The notes under the pieces are model-generated. The model was given only the letters and a program-made list of their open reading frames with translations, ran no database searches and was not told the origin of the DNA. A stretch of DNA of 64,000 bases from Biomphalaria glabrata (Eukaryota): positions 24,176,637 to 24,240,636 of the forward strand of contig NC_074716.1 of NCBI RefSeq assembly GCF_947242115.1, given 5' to 3'. A program made the translations under genes and the position numbers. This document shows positions 10,661-34,356 of this stretch, piece by piece (position 1 is the first letter of the stretch; each line of letters starts with the position of its first letter).

Positions 10661-10700
10661 GAATGGTAACAGAGAAAAAGCATTGAGTGTTATATTGAAG
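10661..10700 (+). CDS. MAP3K5: ASK1 exon
   Basis: Acceptor tttttttag|, donor |gtaatt. Encodes (R)NGNREKALSVILK, aligning with human RRNLPGDRAKALDIMIP. Confidence 0.75.
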
Positions 10701-10829
10701 GTAATTTCTATTACTTTTATTTTTTTAATTGTAATATTCATATCACATTGTATTGTTGCTGTTTTCTTGATATGATTTCTCAACTTATATGCTATCAGCT
10801 GTTCAATGTTTGTTTGTTTTTCTGTATAG

Positions 10830-10951
10830 GCAATAGAGAAGTCAGAAACTCCTGTTCCTGACATGATATGTTTGTGTGGTCGAATCTATAAGGACAAGTT
10901 TGTTGATTCTGATTACACTGATCAAGACGCTCTTCATAATGCAATCACCTG
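10830..10951 (+). CDS. MAP3K5: ASK1 exon
   Basis: Acceptor tctgtatag|, donor |gtaaat. Encodes [40 protein letters not shown](W), aligning with human MYCLVGRIYKDMFLDSNFTD. Confidence 0.9.
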
Positions 10952-11348
10952 GTAAATTTTAGCCCATTTTTTTATTACTTACTGTGCCAAATGTTAAAAT
11001 ATATATCTGGTTGAGTTTTAAATCTATATGTAACATGATAAGCATGCCAGCAGACTATCTTCTTGGCAAAGTCTCTATATTTTGCTGAAATTGGGTAGTT
11101 TCTATTTAAAAATTATTTTTTTTTTTTGGGGGGGGAGAGGGGGAAAGAAAAAAATGTTTATATTTGTGCATGTTTTAATGGGGATATCTATCTGTCTATC
11201 TATCTATCTCTTTAACTATTTATTATATATATATAATTTTTATTTTATTTTTATTATTATTTGAATTCCGAATATACTTACTTATTGACAATCAATCTTT
11301 GAGTACTTTGTATTTGCGCTCTAATTCTAGTCTATTTTGTCCCTCCAG

Positions 11349-11461
11349 GTATAGAAAGGGCTTTGAAGTTCAGCCCAATGAATATGCTGGGATAAATCTA
11401 GCCACACTACTTGTTATCTCTGGCAAAGACTTCAGTACTTGTACTGAGCTCCAGAGAATTG
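11349..11461 (+). CDS. MAP3K5: ASK1 exon
   Basis: Acceptor ccctccag|, donor |gtaggt. Encodes [37 protein letters not shown], aligning with human WFKKAFESEPTLQSGINYAVLL. Confidence 0.9.
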
Positions 11462-11844
11462 GTAGGTTCTCATAACTACTATATTTTTTTAGATTGATCA
11501 AACCAACAAATAACAGAAAGCTGAAAGATGAAACACGTCAATATCTTTCAAAGATTTTTTTTTTTCTAAATATAACTTCATGTCTCTATAAAATAATAAT
11601 GCTGATAAGAATTATTTTTAAATTACATATGAAACAAAATAGTAGTAACTCTTAAGAATTTGAATTGAACACTTCACATTGGCACCAATTAATGGAACTT
11701 CCTTAGGTTTGTTTTTATTTTATATCAAAGGCTATGAACTCATAATTCTGTGACTGCCAAGCATTACATGTAACGACCTTTTTCATGATTCTATTAAAAT
11801 TATTTCTTGTGGTACTTTTAATAATATTGTTCTATGATTGCCAG

Positions 11845-12004
11845 GTATTACACTGAACAACCTAATTGGTAAAAAAGGCAGCTTATCATCTCTGAACAAC
11901 TATTGGGATGTGGCAACATTCTTTGAGATTAGTGTTCTGGCAGAAGACTTCAACAAAGCTGTTCAGGCAGCTGACTGTATGTACAGACTGGAGCCGCCAG
12001 AATG
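11845..12004 (+). CDS. MAP3K5: ASK1 exon
   Basis: Acceptor gattgccag|, donor |gtaatt. Encodes [52 protein letters not shown](W), aligning with human LSSLLGKKGNLEKLQSYWEVGFF. Confidence 0.9.
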
Positions 12005-12272
12005 GTAATTAGTACCTTCTTTCTGGTGTATATTTCTATTTATTTCCTCCATTCAACGCTTTGTCTAAAATGTCATCATTTTACTCTGTTGTACAGTAAT
12101 TGATCATTCAAATTTTCAAATAAAAGGTTTTTTTAAAAAAAATTTTTTTAATTATTTAAGAAAAAAAAGGTTTTAATAGCTTAAAATTTTATATAGAAAA
12201 TTGGTAGTTTTTGTCCTTAATATTTCTTTTATTTCTAAAAACTATATTTTTGATTGTTTCTATTACATCCAG

Positions 12273-12360
12273 GTATTTAAAATCCACAATAGGGAACATT
12301 ACTCTCATAAATAGGTTTCGTAAGAGCAAAAATAACAATATCAACAGTAAGGAATCTCAG
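12273..12360 (+). CDS. MAP3K5: ASK1 exon
   Basis: Acceptor tacatccag|, donor |gtaatc. Encodes YLKSTIGNITLINRFRKSKNNNINSKESQ, aligning with human WYLKSIVETILIYKHF. Confidence 0.85.
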
Positions 12361-13193
12361 GTAATCTGAATTTTTGAAGTATTTAATCCATAGTCATTTG
12401 CTCCATGTATATCCATTATTAAATATTTAGTGGTCATGTGGTTTAAATACTTGGCTACTGAGTCTTACAGTTTGCTGTAGATTTGGATTTTTACTTGGAA
12501 TTCAAGGCCATTTTGATTCCACTCAGTTCTGATACATACCTGATATACTGATACAGTGGATCAGAAATACCAGAACTAAGGCCCGCAGGCTACGGGTCAT
12601 ATCCAGCTAGTACTGATATAAAATTAAGACAGTTGGTCAATATACATGCCTCTTAACTCCCTTAGGTACACATAATTATAAAGCACACAAAGTTCCAACC
12701 AATAACTAGGAAGATTTCCTAACCTCACAACTAAAGAATGCTATGCCAAACAGGCAGATAGTTTGATGTAGTATGTTTCTTAAAAAGCAAAGTAAACTAC
12801 TACACACAGTTCTCTCTTAAATCTTATCCCCATAACTCTATTCAAACATACTTGTCTTTATATAGAATCTAGCTTAATAGCATATTACTCATTCAATTAT
12901 CTTCATCCAAACATCTTACATCAAGGATATTATTCTAGTTGAATCCAGCTTTGTCCCTCCAGGTCACTAAGGTTATCCAAGCACAAAATAAACATGACCA
13001 ACTAATTGTAACCTTCACTCCCTTTCTCTAACTCTTAATATGTTTGTTGTAGCATTTCTAGTTTTCAAAAATACAATTACAAATATTTGCTGTCACTTTG
13101 TAGTTGTAGGTATATAATAAATTCAATGTAGAAATTCAGAATTATATTTAAAGTATTTTTATACTAATTTGATTTTTTAAAATTTTCACACAG

Positions 13194-13268
13194 CTTTTTG
13201 TTTTTTGGATGGATTTCTTTATTGAAGTCTCAAAACCATTATCAGAATTGACTAGCAGTCAGTTTCCT
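13194..13268 (+). CDS. MAP3K5: ASK1 exon
   Basis: Acceptor tttcacacag|, donor |gtaagt. Encodes LFVFWMDFFIEVSKPLSELTSSQFP, aligning with human LVDFWMDFLVEATK..VRFP. Confidence 0.85.
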
Positions 13269-13355
13269 GTAAGTATAGTTTGTGTATGTTTGTTATAGCA
13301 GATGTCATTTTTTTTGTAAGAAGCTCATCTCATTACCAACTGTCTGTATGGCCAG

Positions 13356-13427
13356 GTACTTCTTCTTGAACCCAACAGAGAGTTCATTCCAAGCTACATC
13401 CAAATTAATGTAGAAATCCAAGAAAAG
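13356..13427 (+). CDS. MAP3K5: ASK1 exon
   Basis: Acceptor atggccag|, donor |gtaaat. Encodes VLLLEPNREFIPSYIQINVEIQEK, aligning with human VLILEPTKIYQPSYLSINNEVEEK. Confidence 0.9.
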
Positions 13428-13598
13428 GTAAATACAACTGAACATTGGATTCATGTAAAAGCATGATGATTTTTCATACTTTTTTATTCTTATATAAAAT
13501 TCATATTTGTCTAAGTTTATTTTAAAATTTCAAAGAATTCATTCTTAACCTAAGTGTAAAAGTACCAGATAAACAATTGTGAATTGACACTTTTATAG

Positions 13599-13687
13599 AA
13601 TGTACGTTTGTGGCATGTTTGGCAAGACCCTAAAGATCATCGTCCAAATGATTGGACATTTCCTGCTGAAACTATCAAAAGAGTCAG
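13599..13687 (+). CDS. MAP3K5: ASK1 exon
   Basis: Acceptor ttttatag|, donor |gtgaga. Encodes NVRLWHVWQDPKDHRPNDWTFPAETIKRV, aligning with human ISIWHVLPDDKKGIHEWNFSASSVRGV. Confidence 0.85.
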
Positions 13688-13913
13688 GTGAGATACAAAC
13701 TGTACAAATTTGACCTTTCAACTTGGTAATGCTCTAAGTTACTATTGGAAGATTTAGTTTAACCAATTGAGACTGGAGACTAATAAGAGATTGTGCTCCT
13801 TTATTTCATGATCAGTTTTGTTGTTCTTAGTTCATGACCAACTAAAGACAGAAATCTATTGTAACAGACAGTTTTTGTTTCAAACATTTATAGTAAATGT
13901 GTATTCTCCACAG

Positions 13914-14012
13914 CTTGTACAAGCGAGACTCTAGAGCTATATTCCTGTATGTTCAAGATATCTCAGATGATGACTATCATATTTTTTTCTCATCAGATGA
14001 CCAGGCTCAAAG
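13914..14012 (+). CDS. MAP3K5: ASK1 exon
   Basis: Acceptor tctccacag|, donor |gtagac. Encodes (S)LYKRDSRAIFLYVQDISDDDYHIFFSSDDQAQ, aligning with human SISKFEERCCFLYVLHNSDDFQIYFCTE. Confidence 0.85.
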
Positions 14013-15109
14013 GTAGACATGTTTAGTTTTTGGGAGATTAATATTTATCATAGTATAACTATTTCCCCAATCACATTTTTTTTCTAAATTGTTTATCTGA
14101 TATATATTAAGAAATACATTTTTGTGCAGTTCCTGATTCTGTTATAGTTAAGGTTACCACATGACTAGGAAATATGGAAATGTCTGAGAATTTTGTTGAG
14201 GAACAATTAGTATAGGAAATTAAGGAAAAAAATTAATTCTTGAAAACTGAAAATAAAATGATAACTTACAATTTTTACTGGTAAAAAGAGTAAACGTCCC
14301 ATTTGTCTGAAAATGTAAACCTTGTTATTCATTGTATAATAATCGGCATGTTGTGTTAGCAATCTCAATGTATTCACCTTACTGTGTCCCACCTCACCAT
14401 TCAAGTTAATCTCTACCCCCTTCTCACCAGTTGAACAAGTCCATAACATCATTTTTTAGTTACCCCACTTGCCCATCCCTGTCTTCCAGTCATTCTTTAG
14501 GTGTGCCTTAACTGCCCCTACCACACTAGGTTTTGGCATACCCCTCCCTTCCCAACTAAACATCAGTCAGCATCCATTCCTCCACCCCCCTCCACTTAAC
14601 TTGGGTGACACAATTAGATCTAGTTCACTCCCTTTACACCTTCAAAACTTGTTAATTAGAGTCCATGTTAGTAGCATGGTGACATGTTTTTTTCAATACA
14701 GTTTTGTTTGTTCTGTGTGTTAGTCCTAGTCTAGGTCTAGAAACTTAGATCCTTTATTTATTTATTTTTTTAAATGTTATTAAGAGGAAAAAAGCAGATT
14801 AAAACATGAAATCATGCAGGTTTTAAAAGTATGTTTTTGTTTCAAAGTCTATATTAACTAAATCCATATGTATCATTTTGAGTTGTAGTTGTTGTGTTTC
14901 AATAATTAAATCTACTAACAATCCAGTCCAATTAAAAAAAAAAAATCTTTTTTAATAAATCTTTGAACTTGAACATCAACAAAAAACAAATGAGGATCCG
15001 GCTCTACACTGACTTTTTTACTACAGCTGATGTTTTGTTTTCATATTTATGTACTGTTTTATGACATTTGTTTGTTTTACATGTTTCGGATGTTCCTTCA
15101 GAGTTGAAG

Positions 15110-15265
15110 ATAGTTTACTTCCTAGTCCAAACCTCCCGCAGGACGACGGGGGATGGGAGCGGGCAGGGTTTGAACCCTCGACCGTCGATAAATCCGAACG
15201 ACAGTCCAGCGCGCAAACCGCACGACCAGGCAGCCATCCCGACCAGGCAGCAAAGAGGCATGAAG
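15110..15265. other. GC-rich island with a B-box-like GGGTTTGAACCC (possible tRNA-derived SINE fragment, antisense) about 50 bp upstream of an ASK1 acceptor
   Basis: This about 150-bp segment has about 60% GC, versus about 30% for the flanking intron. It contains GGGATGG...CCATCCC pairing ends but does not fold as a canonical tRNA. Confidence 0.35.
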
Positions 15266-15315
15266 GTTTTTATATGTTTATAAGATTATGACAAAGCTCT
15301 CTTCCTCTTGGACAG

Positions 15316-15394
15316 ATTTTATAGAATGATGAGTTCATTAGCCACAAGTCCTGACTGTTTGAATGATGAAGATGACATTGAAGATGTAGTGGAT
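15316..15394 (+). CDS. MAP3K5: ASK1 exon (pre-kinase linker)
   Basis: Acceptor ctcttggacag|, donor |gtaagt. Encodes (R)FYRMMSSLATSPDCLNDEDDIEDVVD. Confidence 0.8.
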
Positions 15395-15533
15395 GTAAGT
15401 GTGCTGAACTGTCAATTTGAAATGTTTTCATTTATCATTCACAACTTAGTCTTCATTTTTTTCATCCTTTTCTATTCAACAATTTAAATTGTTATTCTGC
15501 CCATTGTTACTTACCATATTTTGTCTCTCCTAG

Positions 15534-15667
15534 TATGTCTATGATCTGGATGATAAAGGTAACCGCATACTTCTGGGTAAAGGTACATATGGTGCAGTTT
15601 ATGCTGCTAGAGATAAAAAAACACAAATAAAAGTGGCAGTTAAAGAAGTGCCTGAGAAGTATCACCA
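15534..15667 (+). CDS. MAP3K5: ASK1 kinase-domain exon (Gly-loop and beta3 Lys)
   Basis: Acceptor tctctcctag|, donor |gtaagt. Encodes [44 protein letters not shown], aligning with human [34 protein letters not shown]. Confidence 0.95.
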
Positions 15668-15912
15668 GTAAGTAGGCTTAGTCATTCTTTAGTATAATTA
15701 ATTCTTTCTGGTAAATAGGTTTACTTTTACCTCATAGGTTTAGTTAAACTAGATTTGGATTTCTTTTTTCAAATGAAGTTTTTTTTTTAAAGTCTTATAA
15801 TAATTTGTCTCAATTTATATTTTTACTTTTCTAAGTAAGGTAATATATATTTATATAAATATTGGTGAACACATGGAACTTTGTATAATTCATCAACCAA
15901 TTTGTGTTCCAG

Positions 15913-16040
15913 AGAGGTGCAGCCATTACATGAAGAAATAAAACTACATATGAGACTTAGCCATAAAAATATTGTCAGATATCTAGGCTCAGTGAGTGAA
16001 GAGGGCTATTTTAAAATCTTCATGGAACAAGTTCCTGGAG
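15913..16040 (+). CDS. MAP3K5: ASK1 kinase-domain exon
   Basis: Acceptor tgttccag|, donor |gtgaga. Encodes [43 protein letters not shown], nearly identical to human [41 protein letters not shown]. Confidence 0.95.
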
Positions 16041-16514
16041 GTGAGAATTTTAATTTCATTCTTACCATTCACATGAGCTCATTTGTGAGAGTGATTAGAT
16101 TCTGTTTATATCTTTTTTTTTCATAAATAAGCCTATTCATTTAAAAAAAACAAGGATTCACCCAAGCCTCTCATTGATCCTTACACTGAGAATCCACAGC
16201 CTAGCTCTTTGAAAATTGTATATTCATTTGTTGTCATTCTTCTGTTTCGTTCAGAGAATATGATAACTAAAACAATGTTCAAGTCACAGTGAGAGACAAC
16301 TTCTTGTTTATCAACATGGTTAACCAAAAACCTTTCTTTCATTACCTCACATTCCTGACTGCACAAGTATTGAGTACATGACACAATGCAAGTGTACAGA
16401 CCTAACAGTATCATTTGTATCTACAATCTTTCTTCATCATAACCTCTATACTTTTAGAGAAGATCTGTTCATTGCAAACTCATTTTAATTCATTACATTA
16501 TTTTTGGCGTACAG

Positions 16515-16618
16515 GAAGTCTTTCCCAGTTATTGAGGTCTAAGTGGGGTCCCCTGAAAGAAAATGAGCCTACCATTGCATTTTATACCAAACAAATATTG
16601 GAAGGATTAAAATACTTG
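16515..16618 (+). CDS. MAP3K5: ASK1 kinase-domain exon
   Basis: Acceptor ggcgtacag|, donor |gtaagc. Encodes [34 protein letters not shown], aligning with human [34 protein letters not shown]. Confidence 0.95.
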
Positions 16619-16755
16619 GTAAGCTTTCTTGTGGGCTTGATAAGAACAAATATACCACTTTGCTTTGCATAGATATGATATCAATTAATATCTATATTTA
16701 CTTATTTGGAACTAAAATATCCTTAAGTAATAAAAACTAAATGCTTATCTACCAG

Positions 16756-16894
16756 CATGATAACAAGATAGTCCACAGAGATATCAAAGGTGACAATGTT
16801 CTTGTAAACACTTACAGTGGAGTTTTAAAAATCTCTGACTTTGGAACTTCTAAAAGGCTGTCAGGGATCAATCCCTGTGCTGATACTTTTGCTG
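16756..16894 (+). CDS. MAP3K5: ASK1 kinase-domain exon (catalytic loop [11 protein letters not shown])
   Basis: Acceptor tctaccag|, donor |gtaagt. Encodes [46 protein letters not shown](G). Confidence 0.95.
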
Positions 16895-17394
16895 GTAAGT
16901 CAATTAGTTTTAATCACTGTTACTATTATTTGTTGCATAGTCTGTTATAAATTGTTATGCATCAGTTTGAGACATTTTCATTAATATGTTCTTTTTTTTT
17001 TTTGGTTTCTTTATCCTGCCTTTGTTCCTTTTTTAGTACTGTTCTTTATGTGTGAGTCTTTGCAAGACAACAATCTGGAGATTTGGACATACCTCCTGAT
17101 TTTGTTAAAAAATATAGTACAGGTCTTGATGAGGCCCAATTTGAATTGTATGATCCTGCCCTTAACACTCTTACATCCTTGTTGGTATTGTTTGCTCCAA
17201 CACTTCTATTCAGTTTTCATTTCTTGTCAGACTATACCATAATAGTCATGAGTGTGATGTTTATTTAAAGAGTTAAATTTACCCAAATATTTCTTTCTAA
17301 GTGTAAGATATAGATTTTGTTGTTGAAGCACTGGTAAAGTAACACTAATAATAGTTGATTACTTAAACACACCTTCACACACAAAATCTATATC

Positions 17395-17426
17395 TTTGAA
17401 AAAAAAAAAAAAAAAAAAAAAAAAAA
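17395..17426. repeat. poly(A) tract (about 30 nt)
   Basis: Homopolymer within an intron; possibly the tail of an older retroposed insertion. Confidence 0.8.
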
Positions 17427-17791
17427 ACAGATACTCACTAAAACAAAATTTAATGGGAATTTTTTTTTTAATAGAAAGGAAATTTCAAAACATACAGAAT
17501 AAAGCACCAGTTACATAAAATGAGTACACACACACACACATACAAATTCAAGAAAGAACTACAACCTAATGAAACTAATTGTTCTGCATAAAACAGTACT
17601 ATGAATTAAAACATTACATGCCAATCTTTAAGTTTTAAAGAAACAAAAAAATCATTGCCTAATGGTGACACTTCAACAACCTGGCATCACAATGTCCTAC
17701 TTTCAGATTTGCAGTCATGTAAAAAATGTGGCCATGATCATAGCTTTATTTATTATGGCTTTTATAAATATAATTTTGTTTTGTTCTAAAG

Positions 17792-17853
17792 GTACAATTC
17801 AGTACATGGCACCTGAAGTCATTGATAAAGGTATCAGAGGATATGGCCCACCT
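17792..17853 (+). CDS. MAP3K5: ASK1 kinase-domain exon (APE motif)
   Basis: Acceptor ttctaaag|, donor |gtaagt. Encodes (G)TIQYMAPEVIDKGIRGYGPP. Confidence 0.9.
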
Positions 17854-17990
17854 GTAAGTAAATAGAGTCAGCATTATGATATCATTTTATCATTTAGATA
17901 GTTCACATTTCTTTAATTTCTGTTGGATTCTTTATGTGTATTGCAAAATTTTTATTTGAAAATCTTATATATTCAAAATTTTGTTCCCAG

Positions 17991-18056
17991 GCTGATATTT
18001 GGTCTCTAGGCTGTACAGTTATAGAAATGGCTACTGGTAAACCACCTTTTATTGAG
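17991..18056 (+). CDS. MAP3K5: ASK1 kinase-domain exon
   Basis: Acceptor ttgttcccag|, donor |gtaact. Encodes [22 protein letters not shown]. Confidence 0.9.
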
Positions 18057-18405
18057 GTAACTATGAACACTTTTTTTAATTAGCAGTTTTGACAAATTTC
18101 CAGTTTCATGAGCATTTATTTTTACCTTATCTAATTGTACAATGGTGAGTCAGAAAGTAATCTTTTCAGCCCTTGCACCCAATTGAACATTTGGAAACTT
18201 ACACATGTTATCTATCCCATTTTTCTGTACACAAAATCTTAACATCAGAATGATCTTGATATTGACAATTTTAAGTTAAAGAAAATGCATTGCTACCCCT
18301 CACTTAACAGTAACAATCTTGATTTAATGGATGTAATGTTTTAGTCTTTAAAGCAGATGTAAATAGGGTAAGGACTAATCATTGAAAGTGTTTGTTGTGT
18401 TGTAG

Positions 18406-18506
18406 CTTGGATCACCAGAAGCTGCCATGTTTAAAGTAGGTTTCTACAAGATGCATCCACAAATACCAGAGTCCATGTCATCTCGAGCTAAAGAATTTTT
18501 GCTGAG
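18406..18506 (+). CDS. MAP3K5: ASK1 kinase-domain exon
   Basis: Acceptor gttgtag|, donor |gtattg. Encodes [33 protein letters not shown](R). Confidence 0.9.
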
Positions 18507-19403
18507 GTATTGTTGCATAGAAAAATCTGTTTTGAAGTAATTAAAGATACAAAAAAGATACAAATTGATTTTGTTAAACAAAAAAAAGGAACTCTGAAAA
18601 ACAATGTATTGAATATTGTTCTTCAACATTCTTGCTAAATGGATTAATTTGAATGTTTTTGTTCCTAATACATACATTACAATAAAGTAGATTTATGGCA
18701 ACATGGTCCAACTTTTGACTTCGCTGGTGTAATCCAAACCTATGGAATATTATAGCTGATAGTTTCAATGTCTAAGGGGCGCCTCTCTTGATTTTTCATC
18801 TGTAGCTTTAGCATCCCAAGGCAGTAATGATCTAAGATCAGAGTACCCCTCTCCTAAATAAATGGCCTTACTTGGCTGATGACTGAAGCACCTGGTTTTG
18901 ATGCCCTGGGTATTAGCTTTCACTACTTTACTTGTCAGCACTAACAGTTAGTTGGGTTTAATATCTAAGTCACACGAGCTGCACTTTGTTGTCTATGGTT
19001 ATTTGAGATGTATGCCATTAAGGAGTATTTTATAAACTGTAGCAGCTTACCCCTAGTGACACTCCTTGCTAACTATAAATACTGATAATGAAAAATTAAA
19101 ATGAAATTTTTGATACATTTGATTTAAGGGCTTTATATATATATATTTTGCTATTTGTATTTTGAGAAAATTATTTATGCTTAAGTTAATACTTCCATAT
19201 TTTTTGCTGTTAAACTACACTTTTACATTTATTCATAATTGTTTAAAATGTAAATATATGACTGTTGTTACTTAGTATGCAGGTTGCAACTGGTTTTGTG
19301 TAGACATGTGAAACACTGAAAACCCATCCTTAATCTTCTGAATTGAAGACATTGCCAATTTGTTCTACCTAATAGCAGAGCTGACATTTTTTTCTATTTG
19401 CAG

Positions 19404-19472
19404 ATGTTTTGAGCCTGAACCCCAAAACAGAGCTACAGCAACAGAGCTTTTGGACCATCCATTTTTATATGA
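19404..19472 (+). CDS. MAP3K5: ASK1 kinase-domain C-terminal exon
   Basis: Acceptor ctatttgcag|, donor |gtaatg. Encodes (R)CFEPEPQNRATATELLDHPFLY, aligning with human KCFEPDPDKRACANDLLVDEFL. Confidence 0.9.
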
Positions 19473-19730
19473 GTAATGACTTTTTTTTTTTGCCATGATA
19501 ATTAAAAAAAAAATAAAGAATTACTTATTACAATAAACTAGCAACTAGTTCCTTCTTGCAAAAATTCTGGTATGAAGCAACAGTAAATTTTTAAAGATTT
19601 AAGATAATATTTAAAATACATGAGAACTAGAGTTAGAGCGAAATAGTTAATATTGATTGTTCATCACATTCCAGTTACTGACCCTATGAAACATTTTCTG
19701 TCATCTGATTTTATTGTTTGTTTTGTTCAG

Positions 19731-19810
19731 AAATTTGGGCAGCAGAAGAAAAAGAGCTAGAAAAACAAAAGAAGAGCATGAACATGTTGACTTTCTGAGA
19801 AGTGTTTCAG
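19731..19810 (+). CDS. MAP3K5: ASK1 exon (basic stretch + first half of RSxSxP motif)
   Basis: Acceptor ttttgttcag|, donor |gtaattg. Encodes (E)NLGSRRKRARKTKEEHEHVDFLRSVS, aligning with human KKKKTQPKLSALSAGSNEYLRSIS. Phase out 1. Confidence 0.8.
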
Positions 19811-20199
19811 GTAATTGTTAGTATTCGGCTCTAGAAAAGTTAATGTAGCTGTGTTTTTGGTTTAAATTATGAATGTGATTAACAGGAATGTTGTACAACT
19901 TCATCACAAGGTAGGTTGTTGTTAGGCTATGCTGAGAAAGCTGTTAACAAACATTATAATCTATATTATTATAAGGACAAAATACCACTTGCTGATTTAT
20001 TGATTTTATGTACCTATGTAGCAAGAGATCTGATCAACTGCTATATGGATTCGCATGAAATTTCCTTTTATCCCTTAGTTGCTTGCCTGAACACAGCAAT
20101 TCGAGAAAAAAATGCAAGCATTCTATTCAATCTTTGTATTTTATTTTAGCTATTTCCCCATAAGGCAGTGTCATGTTTAGGAATTATTTGTGTTGTTAA

Positions 20200-21110
20200 C
20201 TAGCTGTACACAATTAAGGTCCCTTGGTTCACCCTGACATAGTCCACCAGATTCTGACCGACTGGCGTCACAAAGCTGCCAACCTCGGTAATAGTAAAGT
20301 TAGATCTCAGATAATCGCCAATTTGACAATGACACTGAATACTGTAATATATATTTCTGAGACCGCAAGCGACGCCCACACTAGCATAGACTTGAGCTCA
20401 GTATATACTACTCCAACACTGTCACCCCTAAACACTGGTCCAAAAATCCTACTGAGTAATAAGTCCAAGAAAACTAGTACAGACTATAGATATAATAACC
20501 TTTTATGGACCAAAACACCGTCCATTTCAACCAAACTCAGAGGGTGAACTGCCTCATGACAAAGAGTGACCAATACATGTCACCGGACTTAGTGACGTAG
20601 CAAAACAATTCAAAACACAAATACAGGGCACTCTCGCCCCAAACAAGTACTACGAGTAGAGGAAATAAAAAACAGAGTTAGGATAACTACGCGACAGGCA
20701 GCAGTCTACATATAAAGCTTAAGTGCAAATGTTTTAATTTCACAAAACAGACTTCCATATTTAAAAAAAAATTTGAAGCATATTTTCTTTCTTTTTCCCT
20801 AATATCCAAAATAGCTACATAAATGCATGTTTAAAAAGTTTCTTAAAACGAAATTGCAATCGTCGACGCTTTAAACAGTTAACTAACAAAAACAAGTTAA
20901 TATTTTAATTTCTTTTAATCGAAAACACCAAACATCTTTTTGGGCCTATTAAAAGTGGTATCTATGTTAGAGAGGGACCGTTAAAATGCCGGCAATGGAA
21001 GTGCACAATGTACAAAACTAAAGGATAGGAGGTTCCTGACAAAATAAATCAAATAGAGCCTGGGAACAAATCCACAGGCCTAGCCTGGGTATAATGCTAG
21101 TCATCTATAC
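20200..21110. other. Compositionally distinct (C/A-rich, CpG-containing) about 0.9-kb block inside an ASK1 intron; unclassified insertion
   Basis: It departs from the flanking AT-rich intron and contains GTGACGTAG and gtcgacgc. Its 107-aa ORF (20224-20547) has no recognisable domain. Confidence 0.3.
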
Positions 21111-21381
21111 ATTTGTTCAAACTTCTTTTAGCAGTGTACTGTTTTGTTTCACTTTTTATTATTATTTTTTTTTACATATGTTTATTTTTTGTGCCATTTA
21201 TTAATTAGTAACACTTAAATTTAAAAGCTTATGTTATGTTCAGTATTTTATTAGTGCTGGTAGATGTAGACCAAATTTCAAGTCTGAGCATGTTTGTGAA
21301 AATAACTTTTCATTGTAACTTGGCTGCCAACTTTACTAAAGACAACCAATAATGCTGTATTTAATGCTTTCTATTTGACAG

Positions 21382-21442
21382 AACCAATGGGGAAAGGTAA
21401 AAGCATGGATGAACTGAAACTAAGGATACCTAGAATCACAAA
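21382..21442 (+). CDS. MAP3K5: ASK1 exon (completes RSVSEP 14-3-3-type motif)
   Basis: Acceptor tatttgacag|, donor |gtgaga. Encodes (E)PMGKGKSMDELKLRIPRIT. Phase-compatible with the exon ending at 19810 and the one starting at 22446. The junction gives FLRSVSEP, matching human YLRSISLP. Confidence 0.6.
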
Positions 21443-21639
21443 GTGAGAAACTTTCAATGATGTATGGATAGCATCCTTATATAGCTTACATACAATAGTT
21501 CAAACACAAGTTCTACCACATTACAACTAAGTCCTTAATCTACTTCTGTATGCCTCAGTACAATGTAGCACAATTATTAGCTTTCATTATACTCATGGCT
21601 TTTACTATTTATAGTGTCCTTATACCACTTTACTTAATG

Positions 21640-21800
21640 GCCTATAGAAACAGCCTTGTATTTATTAGTTGATTTTAATGCCCTAAAGAAACAGGCTTGT
21701 ATTTATTAGTTGATTTTAATGCCCTAAAGAAACAGGCTTGTATTTATTAGATGATTTTAATGCCCTAAAGAAACAGGCTTGTATTTATTAGATGATTTTT
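21640..21800. repeat. About 43-bp minisatellite x4 (gccctaaagaaacaggcttgtatttattag(t/a)tgattttaat)
   Basis: Visible tandem copies. Confidence 0.9.
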
Positions 21801-22445
21801 CTTTGAAAGTCATAAGCTATTAAATTATTATTTTTTAAATAACTGAGTAGCTACTAAGTTTAATGCATGCATTTCTTTGTCTTTTTTTTTTTTTTTTTTT
21901 AAAGACAGTGAATTTTGTATGTTCTATGTTTTATATGTTATTCCTACAGGGGTAAATGCTTTAGGATTTCATTTTACTATTGATTTATCTATTTTTAATT
22001 GGAATCCTATTCAGTTTCCCATTTTATAATTTTGCAAGGTTAGCATGCATGCCATTGATCACACTCATTATATGAAATATACACTGGCTTAAGTGATACT
22101 CTCTTATAGTAGCTTCTGACTAAGTAGAAACAGGGAGCATACTTTCAATCAGTACAACAACAAAAAAAAGAACTCTTCTTTTTGAAAAGTACAATTTTTC
22201 AATATCCGTATTTGATATTAATATAATAATCCACCACCAACCCATCCCAACGTAATCATGTTTAAAAGAAACTTTCTTTAATTTCACTGTCATGCCTTTA
22301 GATTCATAAATCTGTAAAGAAAAATTAACATAAAAACATACACTTTTTTTTTATTTTCATTGGGGGTTGACTTCTTCAGGTTTTCTTTGTTGTTTATTTT
22401 GTTCCTCTATTTCCCTCCCTTTGCTCTGCTACTTTAATTGAGCAG

Positions 22446-22513
22446 ACTTCAGACAGAGCTGTTTGGTAGCCAGGAAAACCTTCGTGAAGAGCTTGATACA
22501 ATAGATGAGGGGC
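22446..22513 (+). CDS. MAP3K5: ASK1 exon
   Basis: Acceptor ttgagcag|, donor |gtgagt. Encodes (K)LQTELFGSQENLREELDTIDEG(R). Open only in this frame; phase consistent. Confidence 0.65.
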
Positions 22514-23662
22514 GGTGAGTATACGAGAATTATATTCAAATGTAATTGCATAAGAAGCCTAAATAAGTGTTTTTTGTCAATAACATTCATCACTGTGAGA
22601 TGGTAATCGTTTTGCATTGTTTAGCAAACATTCAGAAATATTAAAAAGGGGGGGGGGATGTTCTGTCAGTTTTGGCATGTTTTTGCATTGCTAAATGTGT
22701 TTATTTTTAACCTATGTTTTCCTCTGTAAACAAAAAAATTAGTTCTTACAATTCATAGTTGCCAAGTAAAACAAAAATTATTGAAAAGAATTAGAAAATC
22801 AGGAATAGGTTCAGTAACTTAGTCAATTTAAAAATGTTTGTGTCTATATGCTTTATTTAGATACAATGATTCTCAAGTAGTTTTACAAAATAAATATGTC
22901 TATTGTATTTATCCATGTTTGATACTGGCTCTACTTTAATTGCATGTAACTTTGGTTATTTATTTAGTTGTATTAGTTTTACTCTGTGACTTCTTTTTGA
23001 TTACCTTCCCTGAGATTAGTGGTAACCAAACACAAAATCTAAAACAAATTTATGTTTTTTTTTGCAAAACATTTATTAACACATATTTCATTTTCCTTTT
23101 TTTTTTAATAATTAAATTGATGTTAAAGATAAATAAATAAAATCATAATAAATTAAATAACTGACTTTTTAAATCAATATTTTGTCATATTTCATAACAT
23201 TTGACAATTAATTCAAGATGTTATAATATTAATTCCTAAAAACTTTAGTTTTCATTATTCCCTCAATTAACCACAAATCCAGCTTTTTTATTGGACTAGT
23301 TGAATATTATCTATAACAATGTTTACTGTATGTAATCATTCATTGTATGTGTATTACTTAATTTAGTGGTTCCCAAGCCAAAGGTTAAAAACTCTTATAG
23401 AACTGTTTTTTGGGGCCTTATCTAAAATGAATTGGGATGTGTTATGACATGATTAGGAATTAGTTATTTGTTTCCTTAAATGGTAATAACTTGGAATTTT
23501 TATAACTGTGAGTTTGAGAACCACTTGACCTCTGAAGAGTTTAACTTTTTGTTGGTTTCATTGCTCTACCTCTAGCTCTGTCAATGTTGTTGTGTAAGTT
23601 ACTTGTTAGTTCTGAGTGTTGTTGTGTGCTTGACCAATGTTTCTCACTCCTCTCTCTTACAG

Positions 23663-23689
23663 CAGGCTCCTCAGTGTCCCCATGACAAT
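23663..23689 (+). CDS. MAP3K5: Possible ASK1 micro-exon (optional; phase-neutral)
   Basis: Acceptor ctcttacag|, donor |gtgagc; 27 nt. The chain also closes without it, and there is no homology support. Confidence 0.25.
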
Positions 23690-24749
23690 GTGAGCATGTC
23701 TCTTTTTTCTTTTATAACTGGCCCACTTTTATTTCCTTAGCTTAACCAGCTCTTTAACATTTGGTGTGTATTCTTACATCAGCTGCTAATTATAACAGCA
23801 CATTTTTAAAAAAAAATATCCGGTAGTAGAAATAATTTTAATCAACAAAAGAAATCAAATAATTTTGTTTTAAGGATTTTTAAAAATTGGATTGATTTTT
23901 AAATTTTGGGTTTATGTGTGGGTTTTTTTTCTGTGTGGAACATTTAAATTTTTGTCATTTCCCCCCTTTAAATGTGTGATTGATACATTGGAGAGAGAGT
24001 AATGCTTGTGTTGTAGCTGTGTTCATTCTTAAAGACCAACAGATGAGATTTAAAAAAAATATTACTATTAATTATTGATTCAAATTTTGACATCTAACAA
24101 ATTAGCAAATGGAGATTATATTACTAAAATGCATCCTAAGGTGATAATATATACATGGATAAAAGAAGAACAAACCTTTTACAATTTATATCCAAAATTG
24201 TAGGAATTTCATGATGATAAAGTTTACTGCATGGGTATAATAATTATACACAATAGCTACGTGGAGATGGGAAACTGCAGTGTGGGTGACATTACTTTGA
24301 CCATAGCTAATACCTAGGTTTACATCTCATGTATGAAAAGTACCATAGGTGCTCCACAATGAAATAATAATACAAAGAATAGCTCCTTGAAAACAAATAA
24401 TCACCAGAATGCTTTTCTATTAATATTATAAGAGAAGTTCCTTAACTTTTACAAAATTTTTTAGTCACTGTAAAATATTCAGATTTTAGTCAATTTAAAA
24501 TTGTTAGATTCTTGTGCTGAAATAAGCAGGATTAGATATCACAGTTGAGTTAGTTGTTTTCATTTAAAAAGCCAATAGTAGTGATGTTAAAAAAAGAATC
24601 CCTATATATTTCTATTTTATGGAAAAATTACAGATTAGATGGTTTCTTATTCACATAGAACAAATGCAAATTACCATGTGGTTTGTGTCTGATGATATAC
24701 TGATCTAGGGTGTCTTCAAGAAAAAATATGCCAGTTTCCTTTCTTGGTC

Positions 24750-25815
24750 ACATTCCTCGCTTTAAAATAAATAAATCTCTTACTTGAGCCTAATTTTTCT
24801 AGGCTACATACTATGGGCTAATGAATTTTTGACCCAGAGAGCTCAGAGGGTTAGGGTAAACAATGTTATATCTAATGAACGCATAGTTAACACAGGGGCG
24901 CCCCAGGGGGCTGTGACATCGCCATTGTGGTTCATTTTGTACACCAATGATTTTCGATCCGATAGTTCTTGTTGCTCCTTCACAAAATTCGCTGATGATG
25001 CGGCTCTTCTTGCCCTGCTCTCAGAGAGCTCAGACGTAAATGAGTATTTCAAAGAATTAGAACACATTGAAGAATACTGTAAAGATAATTTTTTATTATT
25101 AAATGTAAAAAAAACCAAAGAAATGATAATCGATTTTCGCAGGGACAAGAAGGAAAATGATATTGTTTCTGTAGCTGGAGAGACTATTGAAATTGTGCAA
25201 ACCTTTAAATACCTTGGTACTATCCTAGACAATAAACTAAATTTTACTGCAGATACTGATTATATCAGCAAAAAAAGGGCAGCAAAGATTACGACTACTA
25301 AGAAAACTGTCCTCGTTTAATGTTAGCGAAAAGGGCTTGGCTATGTTTTATCACGCTCACATCTGCAATATTTTCAGTTTCAATATCACTGCCTGGTATG
25401 GCAATCTGAGCATTAAAAATAGGAATAAACTTAATAGAATCCTCAATGCTGCTGGCAAAATCATTGGCAAAAAACAAACCCCATTTGGGCAGTTGTTTGA
25501 GACAAACATCTATAAAAAAGCTAACAAGATCCTCGAAATAAAGAATCACCCTTTGTCTCAGGATTTTGTGATTTTACCATCACAAAAGAGATACAAGACA
25601 CCGATAGCAAAGACAAACAGACACAAACACTCTTTTGTTCCCCTGGCAATCAAATCATTAAATAAGAACAATCTGGTATAAACTTTGTCACATGTAAATT
25701 ATGAGTGAGTCTGGTGTGAATGTACACTTTGGTTTCTTATAGTTATAATGTTTTTTGTTTGGTGTAATGCACAAATTGTAAGACAAATTTCCTTACGGAT
25801 AATAAAGATTATTAA

Positions 25816-25855
<40 letters not shown>

Positions 25856-25860
25856 AGAAA
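24750..25860 (+). mobile_element. 5'-truncated non-LTR retrotransposon fragment (RT C-terminal half + 3' UTR + (ATT)16 tail) inside an ASK1 intron
   Basis: Encodes RT motifs GAPQGAVTSPLWFILYTNDF and FADDAALL. There is a frameshift between ORFs 24784-25320 and 25337-25681. Terminal (ATT)n at 25813-25857. Confidence 0.7.
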
Positions 25861-26689
25861 CAGAAGTTTCACCACTTATAACTCTGGCAATAATTACTTT
25901 GAAACACATCAAAACCTGTATCAAAATGCTAATATCTAAACAATATAAATTTTTTAAAGAGTATTTTATTGACATTTTACTGGTGAAAACAAATATGAAA
26001 ATACATAACCTGGTTACATACTAATCTCCTCTGTTGGTCTTTATGTAGTTAGGACAGTAGAATTTTTATTTTTTTATTTTTGCATTCAGTAGATATTTAA
26101 AACATTAAACTATTATCTAATGAACTAATCTTCTGTGGAATTTTACAGTGTCGCTACAGTAGTATCTAAGTACATAGAAACTAAATAAATACATTTAAAA
26201 ATATAAAAACATCTCTAAGCTAAGTTCATGTAAATAATTTGTGTGTTAAAGCACTAGTTCTTTTATGAGAAAAAAAAGGTCATTTGAATTGGGTCTGACA
26301 GCAAGAGCTCATATACCAGGTGAAGCTCATTGTGTAGGAATTGTTTCTGTGATTTCATCAGCTAATTCATTATTGACTTCTAAAAGTTTAATTGAAAACT
26401 TATTTGCCCACTGCTTAACATGAGTTAATCTGATCCTTAACTGGCTTTGACACAATGTCTCAATTGAAAACAGAATACAAATTTGTCTGTCATATGAAGA
26501 ATTTTGGTTGAACACAATTTAAACAAAAAGCTTTTCTGTCCTATTGAATGTCAGACTGGCTTGAAGTTTTGACAATTCTTTTTTTTAATCATTCTAGGGA
26601 GCCTTAGTTCAGCATTCAATACATAGACCTACATATTCGTGAATTTCATTTTCTTTTAAAGATTATTGCTTTGATAAACATAAGCGAGC

Positions 26690-26850
26690 TTCAACAAACA
26701 TTAACTGAACTTTGGCAAACATAAACTTAGCATCTACAAACATAAACTTAGCTCATTAAACATAATTTTAGCTTTGACAAACATAATTTTAGTTTTGACA
26801 AACAAAAACTTAGCAGCTTAGCTTCCACAAACAAAAACCTAGCTACCACA
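26690..26850. repeat. Degenerate about 21-bp tandem repeat (caaacataaacttagc...) x about 7
   Basis: Visible imperfect tandem units. Confidence 0.7.
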
Positions 26851-29800
26851 AAGTTATTGTTCTTATCAATTTGGTCACACAGATTTCATTTGTCAAGAGC
26901 ATGTTATAGAGTTTCTCTAGTATTTTCCTTTTTAGTTTTTCTTGAGGGTTGGTTTGTGTGATGTCACTAGTGGAGTATCAAAAAGGGACCATTGTGGCTG
27001 CTACTTTTTTTTTTTTTTTAAATAGATTTGCATTTAAGGCGATTTGTAATAGATGTACAAACTTATTTAACTTCTTTAAGAATGACATCTGTTTGAATGT
27101 AAACAAAAGGTGGACCAACTATCACAATAGATTAGTACAATAGTCAAAAATTGTGTTTTATGTGTTGATGTTGTAATATACTGTTCAATTTTGTTTGAAA
27201 AAAAAAAATTAGAGCTATGATTAATATATTTTTTGCATATTCTCTAGTTGGCCAGTTAGCTTTACATAGAGCTTAGCATATTAAAAAGAATTTCCTTTTT
27301 TTTTCTAACCAAATAAATCTTCTTTTCTAAACATTTGCCAGAAAGTTTCATTTCATTATCATTCAAAAATTGTATTTGTTCACATATTTTGGTTTATTGT
27401 AACTATGTTGACTAGACATATTTAGACTCGCTTGACATTGTGACTTTTTCAACCCAATTACCAACTCAAATATTAAAATGAGAATTCTAATTTTATTTTT
27501 CCCACTTCTCTATTTCTGTTCCTATCTAGTTGTCTACTTTCTCTAACATCCAATGGCTGCGATGATGGCTTCTACATTTGGTTTCAACGCACTCAAGCTC
27601 TAACACATTTGTTTCTTTAGTGTTTTTTTTCTCTGTTTTACTCATTCTTCACTTGTTGCTTGCAAAGTTCTTGATACTAACATTCCTAGTTATTAAGTTT
27701 TAAGAGTTCTTTGTTTTTAAGTTGTTTTTTGTTACTAAACATGAATTTTATTTGTTTTATTTTTCACAATATAATAAGATTTTAGTGGATAAAAACTTGA
27801 AGCCTAAATTTCATAACATGATACTAATCTAATGCTATATAGATATTGTGGCTCTAAAATAGTTATGAAACTAGTATTTCGATCAGTTTCTATAAAATAT
27901 TTTTTACCCTTTTGATCAGATATCAGGGTGAGACAATATAAATGTCAGACTTTTATCTGCATACTATCAAAGACAGCCCATCTTATAGCATGTTTGGCTT
28001 AAAAGTGCGCATGGTTTAATATCCATATAGCATCTTGACTGAAAATTCTAGCAGTCCAATGTGTGAGCAAGATAATAGCTTTAATTAACTGCCATGTTCA
28101 CATTTATAGACCATTTACTAAACTGTCTCAACATTTGTTTATTTTGTATCATCCGCTACACATTATTTCAGTCTTACACCTGCTTCCAGTAGTGCGGATC
28201 TCAATTCAATGGATGATCATCCAAGGTATGCCTATTGGAAAACATTACTAAAAGTCTTTTTCACTGAGTTTCATATTTCCTTTTCTTTCTGCTTGCTTTT
28301 ATTTTCCATGTTTAACTATTCTTATGTATACTATTAATATTGATTATTACTATTGGTTAGACATAGAATATATAGATATTAACATCTAGTCCTAAATGTC
28401 TGTGTTGGTGGTATTTTTTTGGGGGTGACTCTTACTAATGCCTAGTTTAAAAATTAACTCTTTTATGGGAGTTTTTTCCTTGCCTGAATTCATTTACCAC
28501 ATAGAAGTTAACATTTACTTGATGTTGCAGTACTCTATTTATAGATGGAAATATTGTTGAGGTTAAGTATAGGTAATAGCAATATGTATTAATTCAAAAT
28601 ATTGATCATTTGTATAGGAGGAAATGTTAGGTTAAAGATTATAATTTGTTATATGAAATGTTGTGTTAAAGATTATATTTGTTTAAGATGGAATGTAAGC
28701 TAAAGATGAATTTATTGTAATTTAGTGGCTAGAGAAATCTGATAGTAATGCCTTCATGTCTGAATCAAACTTTAAAACATTGCTTGAGGAGATGGTGGGT
28801 TGATATGTACTTGTTATTGAAGGGTATTGTGTTGGTTTCAATAAGACCCCCCCCCCCCCCCAATGAAAGTAAAAATAAGTGTATTGAATACGTCCAACTT
28901 TCACATGACCTCTAAAAAGTAAAGATGACCTTTTTTTATCTTTAACTTTGTTAACTCTTGGTTGCTATGGTAATCTAGCTTGATGGGTAGCTAGCTCAGG
29001 TACCAAGTAAACTTTCTTATTCCTGCGAACTCCCATGGAAGCATAGAGTCCCACCTAACCTTAAATTGAATTGCATAAATAAAAGCCTTTGGCTACTTTT
29101 CAGAAACACTGTTTTTACTATTTCTCTATTCTAAAACTTGAATAAAGTTTTAGTCCAGCCCATTTAAAAAGGAGGATTGGGGTCTCTTGTTTTTCTGATT
29201 GGACACTTTTTATCATGGTTTAAATTCTTGTTCTGAATGATCAAACTGAAATAGTTCATGATCTATTTAAATGACAAATTCATTGTGATCTACAGTAACA
29301 GTCCAATTTATGGCTTGCAGTTTGAAATCTTTCAAGTCCCTATGTGATGTGATATTTTATTTGTATCTCATGTCCTAACTGAGTTATTTCTCCACATGAC
29401 ATGTTTGTCTAGAACTGCTTCATATTTGTACACCTCCTCCTTGTCCTGGACTTTCTTTTTTACCACTTACAGTGAATTATTTTATTCTAATTCATTTCAA
29501 TATGTTGACCTTTTTTTCTTTTTCTTTTTTTTTTTCTTAGCATGTTAATGTCTTAATAATTTTCGTGTTTCATTTTAAATTTTGATTTAAAGAATTTAAC
29601 TTTGCAAGCTCATGTTCCACCACATTCTCTTTGAAGCCATATAGGCAAAGAGCTAGCTACTCCTAATCCATGGGTTGGATAGCATGACTCTTGTGGTCCT
29701 ATACAGAACTTTTGTACAAAAAAGGGATTACATGTTGCTTTCATGCACTATGGTTCCTAAGAATAGGTTGGAAGCCCCTGTTTTGTACTATCTCATTTAT

Positions 29801-30737
29801 TCATCCCAACCTTGTTATAATTAAAGTGCAGAGAGAGAGGCTTGTGTCACATTATACTCTTGAGCTTTCCACAATTCAATGAGCAGTCGTTGTGAAATAG
29901 TTGACTAAATTTAACACATTCTCTCATATTAATCACCTGAATCTTTGTCAGTGAAAATTGTATAATGCAGGTCAGTTCTGCAAAATGTGTAACAATTACA
30001 TGTGTTTTGAAATGGGGGTTGGTAGCTTGGCTTGATTAAATTGACCTGGTTGCTTGCTTTTACTACTGGAGCCTACACTCAGATCTCTCCCTTGTTTAAC
30101 ACCTCTGTTATGTGTTTCATTATTGTCTCATTCAAGTTTCTTTTTATGATTGTCCTGTAACACTCATGATTCCATTTCTGAATGCAAACTTAGTCTTGAT
30201 TTCTCCTTCACTAAAGCAAGGTTATCTATATTTTTACACATTGACACAATGGTCCTCAAAACACTTTGGAAGTTAGCAAATCTACTTTCTATTGACAAGC
30301 CAAGTGACATTGGGTTCTTTGGGTGATTCAGAATGTGAAATGTCTTAAGGGGGATTCTTCAATGAATTGTTTCATAGAAATTATGTTTTAAATTGTTTTT
30401 GTGCTGAATTTATTAATAATGAGGTTGAAGTACTTTATGAATTTCTGATTTAAAAAAAAAAGTAAAGTAGCCTAAGTTTTGACAGGTAGACAATGTTTCA
30501 AGAAAATACTTATAATCTGGGAATTTTGTTGCTGACTTTTGTAAAAAAAAATTTTGTGGGCCATGGTTATAAAATAGTATGATTGTGAAGCTAGTAGTCT
30601 TTTGTGTTCTATCTGTGTGAATTGTTTCTGCTTGCTTTTTTTTCCCTCTCTTTCTTTCTCTCTCTCTCTCTTTTATGTTTTAATTGTGTTCTTGTTCTGT
30701 TCTTTTTTTTTTGTCTGCCCACTATTCCTCTTGTCAG

Positions 30738-30794
30738 GGAAGACTTCAGACAGAGAAGTCTTTCCGACAGCCATACAAGGCTACCTCGGAGAAG
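30738..30794 (+). CDS. MAP3K5: ASK1 exon (Ser/Arg-rich linker)
   Basis: Acceptor ctcttgtcag|, donor |gtgaga. Encodes EDFRQRSLSDSHTRLPRR. The frame is open and the phase links 22513 to 36132. Confidence 0.6.

Positions 30795-34308: not shown

Positions 34309-34312
<4 letters not shown>

Positions 34313-34356
<44 letters not shown>
34313..34356. repeat. (AT)n microsatellite
   Basis: About 22 AT dinucleotides. Confidence 0.95.

Follow-up and report, generated by a model that had tools for sequence, protein, structure and literature searches.

The best-described relatives of the gene considered here are the human ASK stress kinases, of which invertebrates appear to have a single co-orthologue of ASK1, ASK2 and ASK3. 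Human ASK1 (MAP3K5) carries C-terminal to its kinase domain the sequence R-S-I-pS-L-P, whose phosphoserine (Ser966/967) is an inhibitory 14-3-3 site (PMC2685135, PMC7700312); changing the serine to alanine raises kinase activity, and stress causes its dephosphorylation (PMC2685135). Human ASK2 (MAP3K6) has the homologous 14-3-3 site at pSer964, likewise C-terminal to the kinase domain (PMC7700312), and the mode I 14-3-3 motif is defined as RSXpSXP (PMC8093981). A different kind of precedent is provided by the tandem-duplicated mutually exclusive exons of Dscam and tropomyosin. Both precedents bear on a gene in a window of 64,000 nucleotides from the snail Biomphalaria glabrata, in which the first-pass annotation saw a motif of the ASK1 type split across an exon junction and deciding between two alternative exons, of 25 nt (19886-19910) and 61 nt (21382-21442), whose mutually exclusive use would produce a 14-3-3-insensitive isoform. 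We favor, with a probability of roughly 0.9, a simpler reading, in which R-S-V-S-E-P is a conserved motif interrupted by an ordinary intron, every protein model read joins exon 25 to the 61-nt exon 26, chance accounts for the 25-nt segment, and isoform diversity arises downstream.

The gene is the annotated B. glabrata ASK (MAP3K5/15-like) stress kinase, named 'MAP3K15-like' in RefSeq, with a coding span of 126..42466 on the forward strand, where all features described below also lie. RefSeq isoform X2 (XP_055887663.1; P0388) can be placed exactly on the window in 42 coding exons, all of whose junctions are GT-AG; 1326 of its 1327 residues fall in exact-match segments, and the last was recovered after junction placement. 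This mapping includes the junctions 19810/21382 and 21442/22446, so that the locus and its splicing at these two points are already known in the RefSeq annotation, whose models (X2 and at least 17 further isoforms) describe exactly the present locus without difference; the 25-nt exon is in none of the models read. A protein search with a window-derived query returned B. glabrata MAP3K15-like as its top match, and full-length orthologues were retrieved with a 1144-aa query, a short composite query having given kinase-domain fragments only. The precomputed Pfam domains are DRHyd-ASK, MAP3K_TRAF_bd, ASK_PH, Pkinase and HisK-N-like (for protein P0270: PF20309, PF13281, PF20308, PF19039, PF00069 and PF20302), and their order is that of an ASK kinase, with N-terminal regulatory domains, ASK_PH, the kinase and a HisK-N-like C-terminal region. 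Together with the RefSeq identity and a best PDB match (phmmer) to the ASK1 kinase domain, these domains bear out the earlier assignment to the ASK family.

The motif lies shortly past the kinase domain, whose last exon (19404..19472, CFEPEPQNRATATELLDHPFLY) ends in phase 2 and aligns with the final part of the kinase domain in human ASK1. Coding exon 25 (19731..19810; 80 nt, acceptor ...ttgttcag, donor gtaatt...) is translated as (E)NLGSRRKRARKTKEEHEHVDFLRSVS and supplies a basic stretch and the first four motif residues (…HVDFLRSVS), with one base, G, left over to give phase 1; it is 87% identical in nucleotides to its Bulinus truncatus counterpart. The R-S-V-S codons (AGA AGT GTT TCA) occupy 19798..19809, and of the two serines the second, which corresponds to Ser966/967 of human ASK1, is predicted to accept the phosphate. 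Coding exon 26 (21382..21442; 61 nt, bounded by tttgacag and gtgaga) is translated as E-PMGKGKSMDELKLRIPRIT-K and completes the motif through G/AA CCA (E-P), so that R-S-V-S-E-P corresponds to 19798-19810 plus 21382-21386, with Arg at -3, Ser at -2, Ser at 0 and Pro at +2 all present in the spliced product. Exon 26 is real: it agrees residue for residue with the RefSeq proteins and is conserved across further molluscs, sharing 50 of 65 bases with Bulinus and encoding the segment LKLRIPRIT(K/R) that is conserved in gastropods (16 proteins). The spliced, land-snail-like fragment P0115 (131 aa), which comes from a related snail, is colinear with exons 25, 26 and 27 and the exon at 36132.

Much of the first-pass description of this region stands. 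Exon 25 does end in ...DFLRSVS in phase 1; both candidates are open, bounded by AG and GT and end in phase 2, fitting the exon at 22446; and translation of each shows that only the 61-nt exon yields R-S-V-S-E-P, which is complete only on the join of 19810 to 21382 and is thus assembled only by splicing. The exon at 22446, taken to be the next certain one, proved instead to be a cassette: coding exon 27 (22446..22514; LQTELFGSQENLREELDTIDEG-R, 69 nt, phase 2 to 2), which ends at 22514 (donor GT at 22515-16) and not at 22513 as given before, is skipped in RefSeq isoforms X9, X16 and X18. A direct join of 19810 to 22446 was considered and rejected, since the shifted frame runs into a stop. All 15 Biomphalaria protein models read join 19810 to 21382 and contain DFLRSVSEPMGKGKSMDELKLRIPRIT; these comprise 13 RefSeq isoforms (X2, X4, X6-X10, X12 and X14-X18), one GenBank model and one from B. 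pfeifferi, and make up half of a 30-member protein cluster, RefSeq X1, X3, X5, X11 and X13 being outside the set.

The likeness to human ASK1 extends over family, domain order, the mode I motif and its distance from the kinase end. In the phmmer comparison with PDB chains of human ASK1, FLRSVSEPM stands ungapped opposite YLRSISLPV, which upholds the proposed match to the human site, and conservation among orthologues, which had been suggested as a check, is likewise found: RSxSxP occurs at the equivalent position in 33 of 42 anchored ASK orthologues, 65-82 residues past the MFKVG anchor with one exception among the 33, and RS[VAST]S[ED]P is carried by all 16 gastropods with complete models. 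In a distant relative with fused kinase exons (L001), no RSxS exon could be recognised over the 8 kb that follow the kinase domain. Two further loci, L002 and L003 of Plakobranchus, stop short of the upstream exons. The snail differs from human ASK1 in its +1 residue, which is Leu in the latter and Glu in the former (an acidic residue, Glu or Asp, in every gastropod read), and in the phase-1 intron that molluscs have between the phosphoserine and +1 codons. The sites in human ASK2 and in fish ASK paralogues (RSMSVP) are homologous as well, and the ASK-family 14-3-3 docking motif is deeply conserved in animals, a schistosome vector snail included.

The splice from 19810 to 21382 creates R-S-V-S-E-P some 25 residues past the kinase domain, as the snail orthologue of the docking sites in human ASK1 (RSISLP) and ASK2. 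Phosphorylation of the second serine and binding of 14-3-3 in the snail are inferred from homology with the mammalian work: in cells free of stress the serine would carry a phosphate and be bound by a 14-3-3 dimer that keeps the kinase inactive, and dephosphorylation under stress would free the kinase, so that the role of the site is expected to be inhibitory, as in human ASK1.

What splits the motif over two exons is an old phase-1 intron (19811..21381) directly after the phosphoserine codon. We compared this intron across gastropods (Bulinus, Aplysia) and one bivalve, with an ant and a sturgeon paralogue in addition. Its position and phase are common to Bulinus (with a total intron length of 247 nt), to Aplysia and to the pearl oyster Pinctada, where the junction reads TCA A/gtaagt … ag/TG CCA. 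The intron is absent from the ant and from the sturgeon paralogue, both of which carry the motif uninterrupted in genomic DNA; at the sturgeon locus it lies within a single exon that starts three codons before the Arg, whereas it is split in the snail. From this distribution, the split appears to be an inherited phase-1 intron of heterobranch snails and a bivalve, an old molluscan character directly 3' of the phosphoserine codon, and not a regulatory device.

The annotated isoform diversity arises just downstream, where different combinations of seven symmetric cassettes give at least 18 RefSeq isoforms, the 14-3-3 motif being kept in all of those read. The cassettes lie between 22446 and 33969, are 69, 18, 27, 51, 54, 57 and 42 nt long and all run from phase 2 to phase 2, and they form a cassette array in that every length is divisible by three, the phases are equal and presence varies among RefSeq models, the last of these being an annotation-based observation. 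Exon 27 is followed by two microexons, of 18 nt (23576..23593, SVNVVV) and 27 nt (23663..23689, RLLSVPMTI, RxxSxP-like, also in Lymnaea protein P0271), and then by exons of 51 nt (27530..27580, CLLSLTSNGCDDGFYIC, with boundaries set by eye from the flanking ag and gt), 54 nt (28172..28225, LTPASSSADLNSMDDHP), 57 nt (30738..30794, REDFRQRSLSDSHTRLPRR, with a basic-Ser-x-Ser-Asp-Ser motif) and 42 nt (33928..33969, RFYLTSPQQQTQSF). The next exon in every model read (36132..36300, SESNMSTDTSPVQTYLLSPD…GGFYLLRKDSERRQTL…) begins the conserved C-terminal region.

This array offers the alternative that survives best, albeit as an improbable one, to which we would give about one chance in ten: that in molluscan ASK the downstream cassettes let splicing adjust control by 14-3-3 while the primary RSVSEP is kept, with optional secondary docking sites, altered linker length or both resulting in graded avidity. 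By the first route, the RLLSVP microexon (23663-23689) or the RQRSLSDS exon (30738-30794) would offer the remaining groove of a 14-3-3 dimer a second, weaker docking sequence; by the other, inclusion or skipping would alter the length of the linker. The proposal draws on the seven freely combinable phase 2-2 cassettes, which begin 21 residues past the motif Pro, on the sharing of RLLSVPMTI with Lymnaea, and on the presence of an FR[RK]R.xSDS cassette in protein models of six other mollusc genera (Physella, Aplysia, Pomacea, Mytilus, Crassostrea and Pinctada). It is, however, drawn from sequence alone; RLLSVP has no Ser at -2, basic-Ser motifs are frequent in disordered linkers, and the RefSeq isoforms are computational models. 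If any part of the locus deserves follow-up, it is this array of conserved cassettes in the disordered linker, through which control of a stress and immune kinase could be diversified in a snail of medical relevance. A variant with the 25-nt segment as a rare exon specific to Biomphalaria is much less likely.

The switch between two exons that the first-pass annotation proposed fares far worse, and we regard it as very improbable. Under this model, 19886-19910 and 21382-21442 are mutually exclusive, and a short form without the motif Pro and the residues downstream of it, reading …RSVSGMLYNFITR…, escapes 14-3-3 inhibition. In its favor, both segments are open, phase-compatible and bounded by AG and GT; inclusion of both leads to premature stops within the 61-nt exon, so that only one could be productive at a time; and the short segment (aacag/.../gtaggt, translated G-MLYNFIT-R) has a strong donor (AAG/gtaggt). 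Against it stands usage: the 61-nt exon is present in 15/15 Biomphalaria models and the 25-nt exon in 0/15, GMLYNFIT being absent from all those read, and thus the two do not each occur singly as the members of a mutually exclusive pair do. An exact look-up of two constructed 25-nt-exon isoforms in a collection of 15 billion proteins gave no match either, which is a weak negative. Nor are both exons conserved in relatives, for the 61-nt exon is found in Bulinus, Aplysia and Pinctada, whereas the best match to the 25-nt segment is 16/29 in each of Bulinus and Aplysia, the level of shuffled sequence. Similarity in length and sequence, typical of such pairs although not obligatory, is also lacking (25 vs 61 nt; GMLYNFITR is unrelated to EPMGKGKSMDELKLRIPRITK). 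The resemblance to the Dscam and tropomyosin pairs is only formal, in that inclusion of both exons breaks the frame; the snail candidates are non-homologous, differ in length, and only one of them is conserved and in gene models.

The 25-nt segment is also what chance would be expected to supply. The interval 19811-22445 holds 86 open, phase-compatible AG…GT segments of 9-300 nt, of which 26 are no longer than 30 nt, and 200 dinucleotide-preserving shuffles of the interval gave 68.9±13.9 and 27.9±5.2, respectively. A short phase-compatible AG…GT stretch is thus no evidence for an alternative exon, because such stretches are expected dozens of times by chance in a 2.6-kb AT-rich interval. The acceptor of the 25-nt segment is poor: its pyrimidine fraction is 0.41, whereas none of the gene's 41 real acceptors falls below 0.53, and its score lies below 40 of these 41 in a crude position-weight matrix with frequencies from general knowledge. 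In B. pfeifferi the segment is intact but for one change, which would be synonymous; the intron around it is conserved to the same degree (96.6% identical), and this species is too close to discriminate, so that conservation there is uninformative either way. The 25-nt segment is one among many open AG…GT stretches that occur by chance in the intron and is most likely never used, and the result mostly corrects an over-reading of such a stretch. Just as improbable is a poison exon, whereby the segment, as a young Biomphalaria-specific microexon, is occasionally included with the 61-nt exon and tunes ASK dosage through frame shift and nonsense-mediated decay: the stops on joint inclusion, the strong donor and the presence in both B. 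glabrata and B. pfeifferi agree with it, but the poor acceptor, the chance-level occurrence and a conservation no higher than that of the surrounding intron speak against it, and nothing singles this candidate out among the 86.

A long open stretch in the same intron, at 20218-20544, was also considered as an exon and rejected; its splice scores are poor, and it lies inside about 530 bp (20169-20696) that are missing from the B. pfeifferi intron and are present in that of B. glabrata.

We put at about nine in ten the probability that exons 25-27 reflect an ordinary arrangement, namely a conserved ASK-family motif, an annotated junction and no supported alternative exon, a reading that rests on annotated models (15 of the 30 members of the top-match cluster were read). 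The window is AT-rich animal DNA (~31% G+C), and an ASK-type MAP3K is recognised in it from kinase motifs upstream of exon 25. One protein search with a short query returned kinase fragments only, and a 1144-aa query built from the window's exons found 'MAP3K15-like' of Biomphalaria glabrata as top match, followed by Lymnaea, Physella, Aplysia and other molluscs. RefSeq isoform X2 (XP_055887663.1, 1327 aa) maps exactly to the window in 42 GT-AG exons (126-42466), with junctions that include 19810|21382, 21442|22446 and 22514|23576; the window therefore holds the annotated snail MAP3K15-like gene, and the exons under discussion are its coding exons 25, 26 and 27. P0115, a spliced 131-aa protein fragment from a related snail found with a query restricted to the post-kinase region, reads LGTRRKRTRKTKEEPEHHDYLRSVSEPVGKNRTTDDLKLRIPRITKLRSEVYGSHDNLSDDLDTIEEGRSESNMSTDTSPV… and is colinear with 19731-19810, 21382-21442, 22446-22514 and an exon at 36132.

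The sequence description in the first-pass annotation was right, and its coordinates, phases and frame compatibility for exon 25 and both candidate successors check out on the + strand. Exon 25 (19731-19810, +; flanks cag| and |gtaatt) translates as NLGSRRKRARKTKEEHEHVDFLRSVS and leaves one spare base, G, so that it ends in phase 1. The 61-nt exon 26 (21382-21442, +; tttgacag|…|gtgaga) reads on as E-PMGKGKSMDELKLRIPRIT-K, and the 25-nt candidate (19886-19910, +; aacag|…|gtaggt) would read on as G-MLYNFIT-R; each exits in phase 2, compatible with the exon starting at 22446, and stop codons are reached by a direct 19810-22446 join, as they are by including both candidates. The start of exon 27 (22446-22514, +) also stands, but its end lies one base past the proposed 22513, with the donor GT at 22515-16.

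The conserved 14-3-3 motif claimed to match the human ASK1 site is real. In a phmmer search against PDB chains, the window model and human ASK1 align ungapped, beginning in the last kinase helices and running on through …FLRSVSEPM / …YLRSISLPV, and RSxSxP occurs in 33 of 42 ASK orthologues bearing the MFKVG anchor, 65-82 residues past that anchor in 32 of the 33. The motif is RSVSEP or RSVSDP in heterobranch snails, RSASEP or RSSSEP in caenogastropods, RSTSEP in vetigastropods and limpets, RSISMP or RSTSVP in bivalves, and RSVSVP in an annelid and a nemertean, with RSISVP, RSVSMP, RSVSAP, RSVSVP, RSMSVP and RSHSMP among other invertebrate and vertebrate representatives; one divergent group, which we take to be nematodes, keeps RSxS but is devoid of the proline. 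Glu was reportedly among the favoured residues at +1 in the original peptide-library work. The snail motif is the already well-known ASK-family site, and by homology RSVSEP would serve as a 14-3-3 site. In mammals, 14-3-3 binding to phospho-Ser966/967 of ASK1 and Ser964 of ASK2 suppresses kinase activity, ASK1 S966A is hyperactive, and oxidative stress brings about dephosphorylation and release (PMC2685135; PMC7700312), RSXpSXP being the mode I motif (PMC8093981).

The motif had been described as assembled only by splicing, and it is indeed split by a junction (19810|21382), one that is already known from the RefSeq annotation; the idea of that junction as a regulatory switch found no support. 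The intron, in phase 1, interrupts the codon next to that of the predicted phospho-serine, after its first base, and its position and phase are identical in Bulinus truncatus (L004 19137|19385, TCA G|gtagta … acag|AA CCC), Aplysia (L006 30393|~31246, TCA G|gtaatg … cag|AG CCG) and the pearl oyster Pinctada (L009 38972|~39680, TCA A|gtaagt … acag|TG CCA, giving RSTS|MP); the split thus reflects an intron position that these molluscs inherited, and nothing in these comparisons marks it as a regulatory novelty of one lineage. The intron is absent in the ant Pseudomyrmex, where FSRSISVPADR is genomically contiguous (L007 5363-5410), and in a sturgeon ASK paralogue, where GDYHRSMSVP starts three codons into an exon (L008, ~position 320). 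P0286, a deposited partial model from Plakobranchus ocellatus, reads …HDFNRSVSVFFHYRIFLTVHRNLGTRRRRARK…HDFNRSVSEPLGKG…, which looks like intron read-through after RSVS and then an exon repeat; the oddity is either an artefact of annotation or, at this same intron position, a local duplication.

Mutually exclusive use of the 25-nt and 61-nt exons, proposed to yield a 14-3-3-insensitive isoform, is without support. The models compared (13 of at least 18 RefSeq isoforms, namely X2, X4, X6-X10, X12 and X14-X18, plus a GenBank model and the B. pfeifferi protein) all join 19810 to 21382, with DFLRSVS-EPMGKGKSMDELKLRIPRIT in 15/15 and the candidate's GMLYNFIT in 0/15, and two constructed isoforms carrying the candidate had no match in the protein collection, a weak negative. 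Between 19811 and 22445, 86 AG…GT segments are open and phase-compatible, 26 of them of ≤30 nt, against 69±14 and 28±5 in dinucleotide-preserving shuffles, and the candidate is statistically not unusual. A crude splice score ranks the 61-nt exon first and the candidate fourth; its donor is strong and its acceptor very poor, with a pyrimidine fraction of 0.41, where none of the gene's 41 real acceptors falls below 0.53, and a crude acceptor score lower than that of 40 of these 41. The orthologous Bulinus intron is only 247 nt long, and the candidate's best match in both Bulinus and Aplysia is 16/29, which shuffled sequences reach as well; for the 61-nt exon the Bulinus match is 50/65, and identity to that species is 87%, 77% and 81% for exons 25, 26 and 27. 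B. pfeifferi retains the 25-nt segment, which is uninformative because the entire intron is 96.6% identical. These comparative data agree with the segment not being a real exon, and we regard it as unsupported on the 0/15 models, the chance-level count, the poor acceptor and the missing Bulinus and Aplysia counterparts. In the same intron, ~530 bp (20169-20696, with a long open stretch at 20218-20544) are missing from B. pfeifferi, elsewhere 90-97% identical, probably through a recent B. glabrata insertion or a B. pfeifferi deletion.

Annotated alternative splicing is located downstream of exon 26 rather than at the motif junction, and differences among the RefSeq isoforms read are confined to that region. 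There, in the disordered linker C-terminal to the motif, an array at 22446-33969 (+) holds seven symmetric phase 2-2 cassettes, each a multiple of three in length: 22446-22514 (69 nt), 23576-23593 (18), 23663-23689 (27), 27530-27580 (51), 28172-28225 (54), 30738-30794 (57) and 33928-33969 (42), combined in at least 18 RefSeq isoforms. The first of these is exon 27, which had been called certain and is skipped in X9, X16 and X18 (…RIPRITN|LTPASS…). Two cassettes encode basic-serine motifs: 23663-23689 gives RLLSVPMTI, RxxSxP-like and also found in Lymnaea, and 30738-30794 gives REDFRQRSLSDS / REDFRQRSLSDSHTRLPRR, whose core FR[RK]R.xSDS is seen again in models of proteins from Physella, Aplysia, Pomacea, Mytilus, Crassostrea and Pinctada. 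Judging from their sequence, both could be isoform-specific phospho-regulatory sites; that they might influence 14-3-3 binding is speculation.

The introns also carry repeats. A near-perfect 40-nt tandem repeat (32641-33138; 12.5 copies, 99% matches), open in all three forward frames, lies within a large intron and accounts for the strongly negative GC skew (-0.32) of 32001-34000, and a 41-nt repeat (21634-21799; 4 copies, 96% matches) lies between exons 26 and 27. The 13.6-kb interval from exon 27 to the exon at 36132 contains a reverse-transcriptase fragment (24775-25317, +). Downstream of the MAP3K15-like gene, there is a non-LTR retrotransposon (58037-60811, +) in which a single stop divides two long ORFs (525 and 399 aa) that match Exo_endo_phos_2 (slightly below the Pfam cut-off) and RVT_1.
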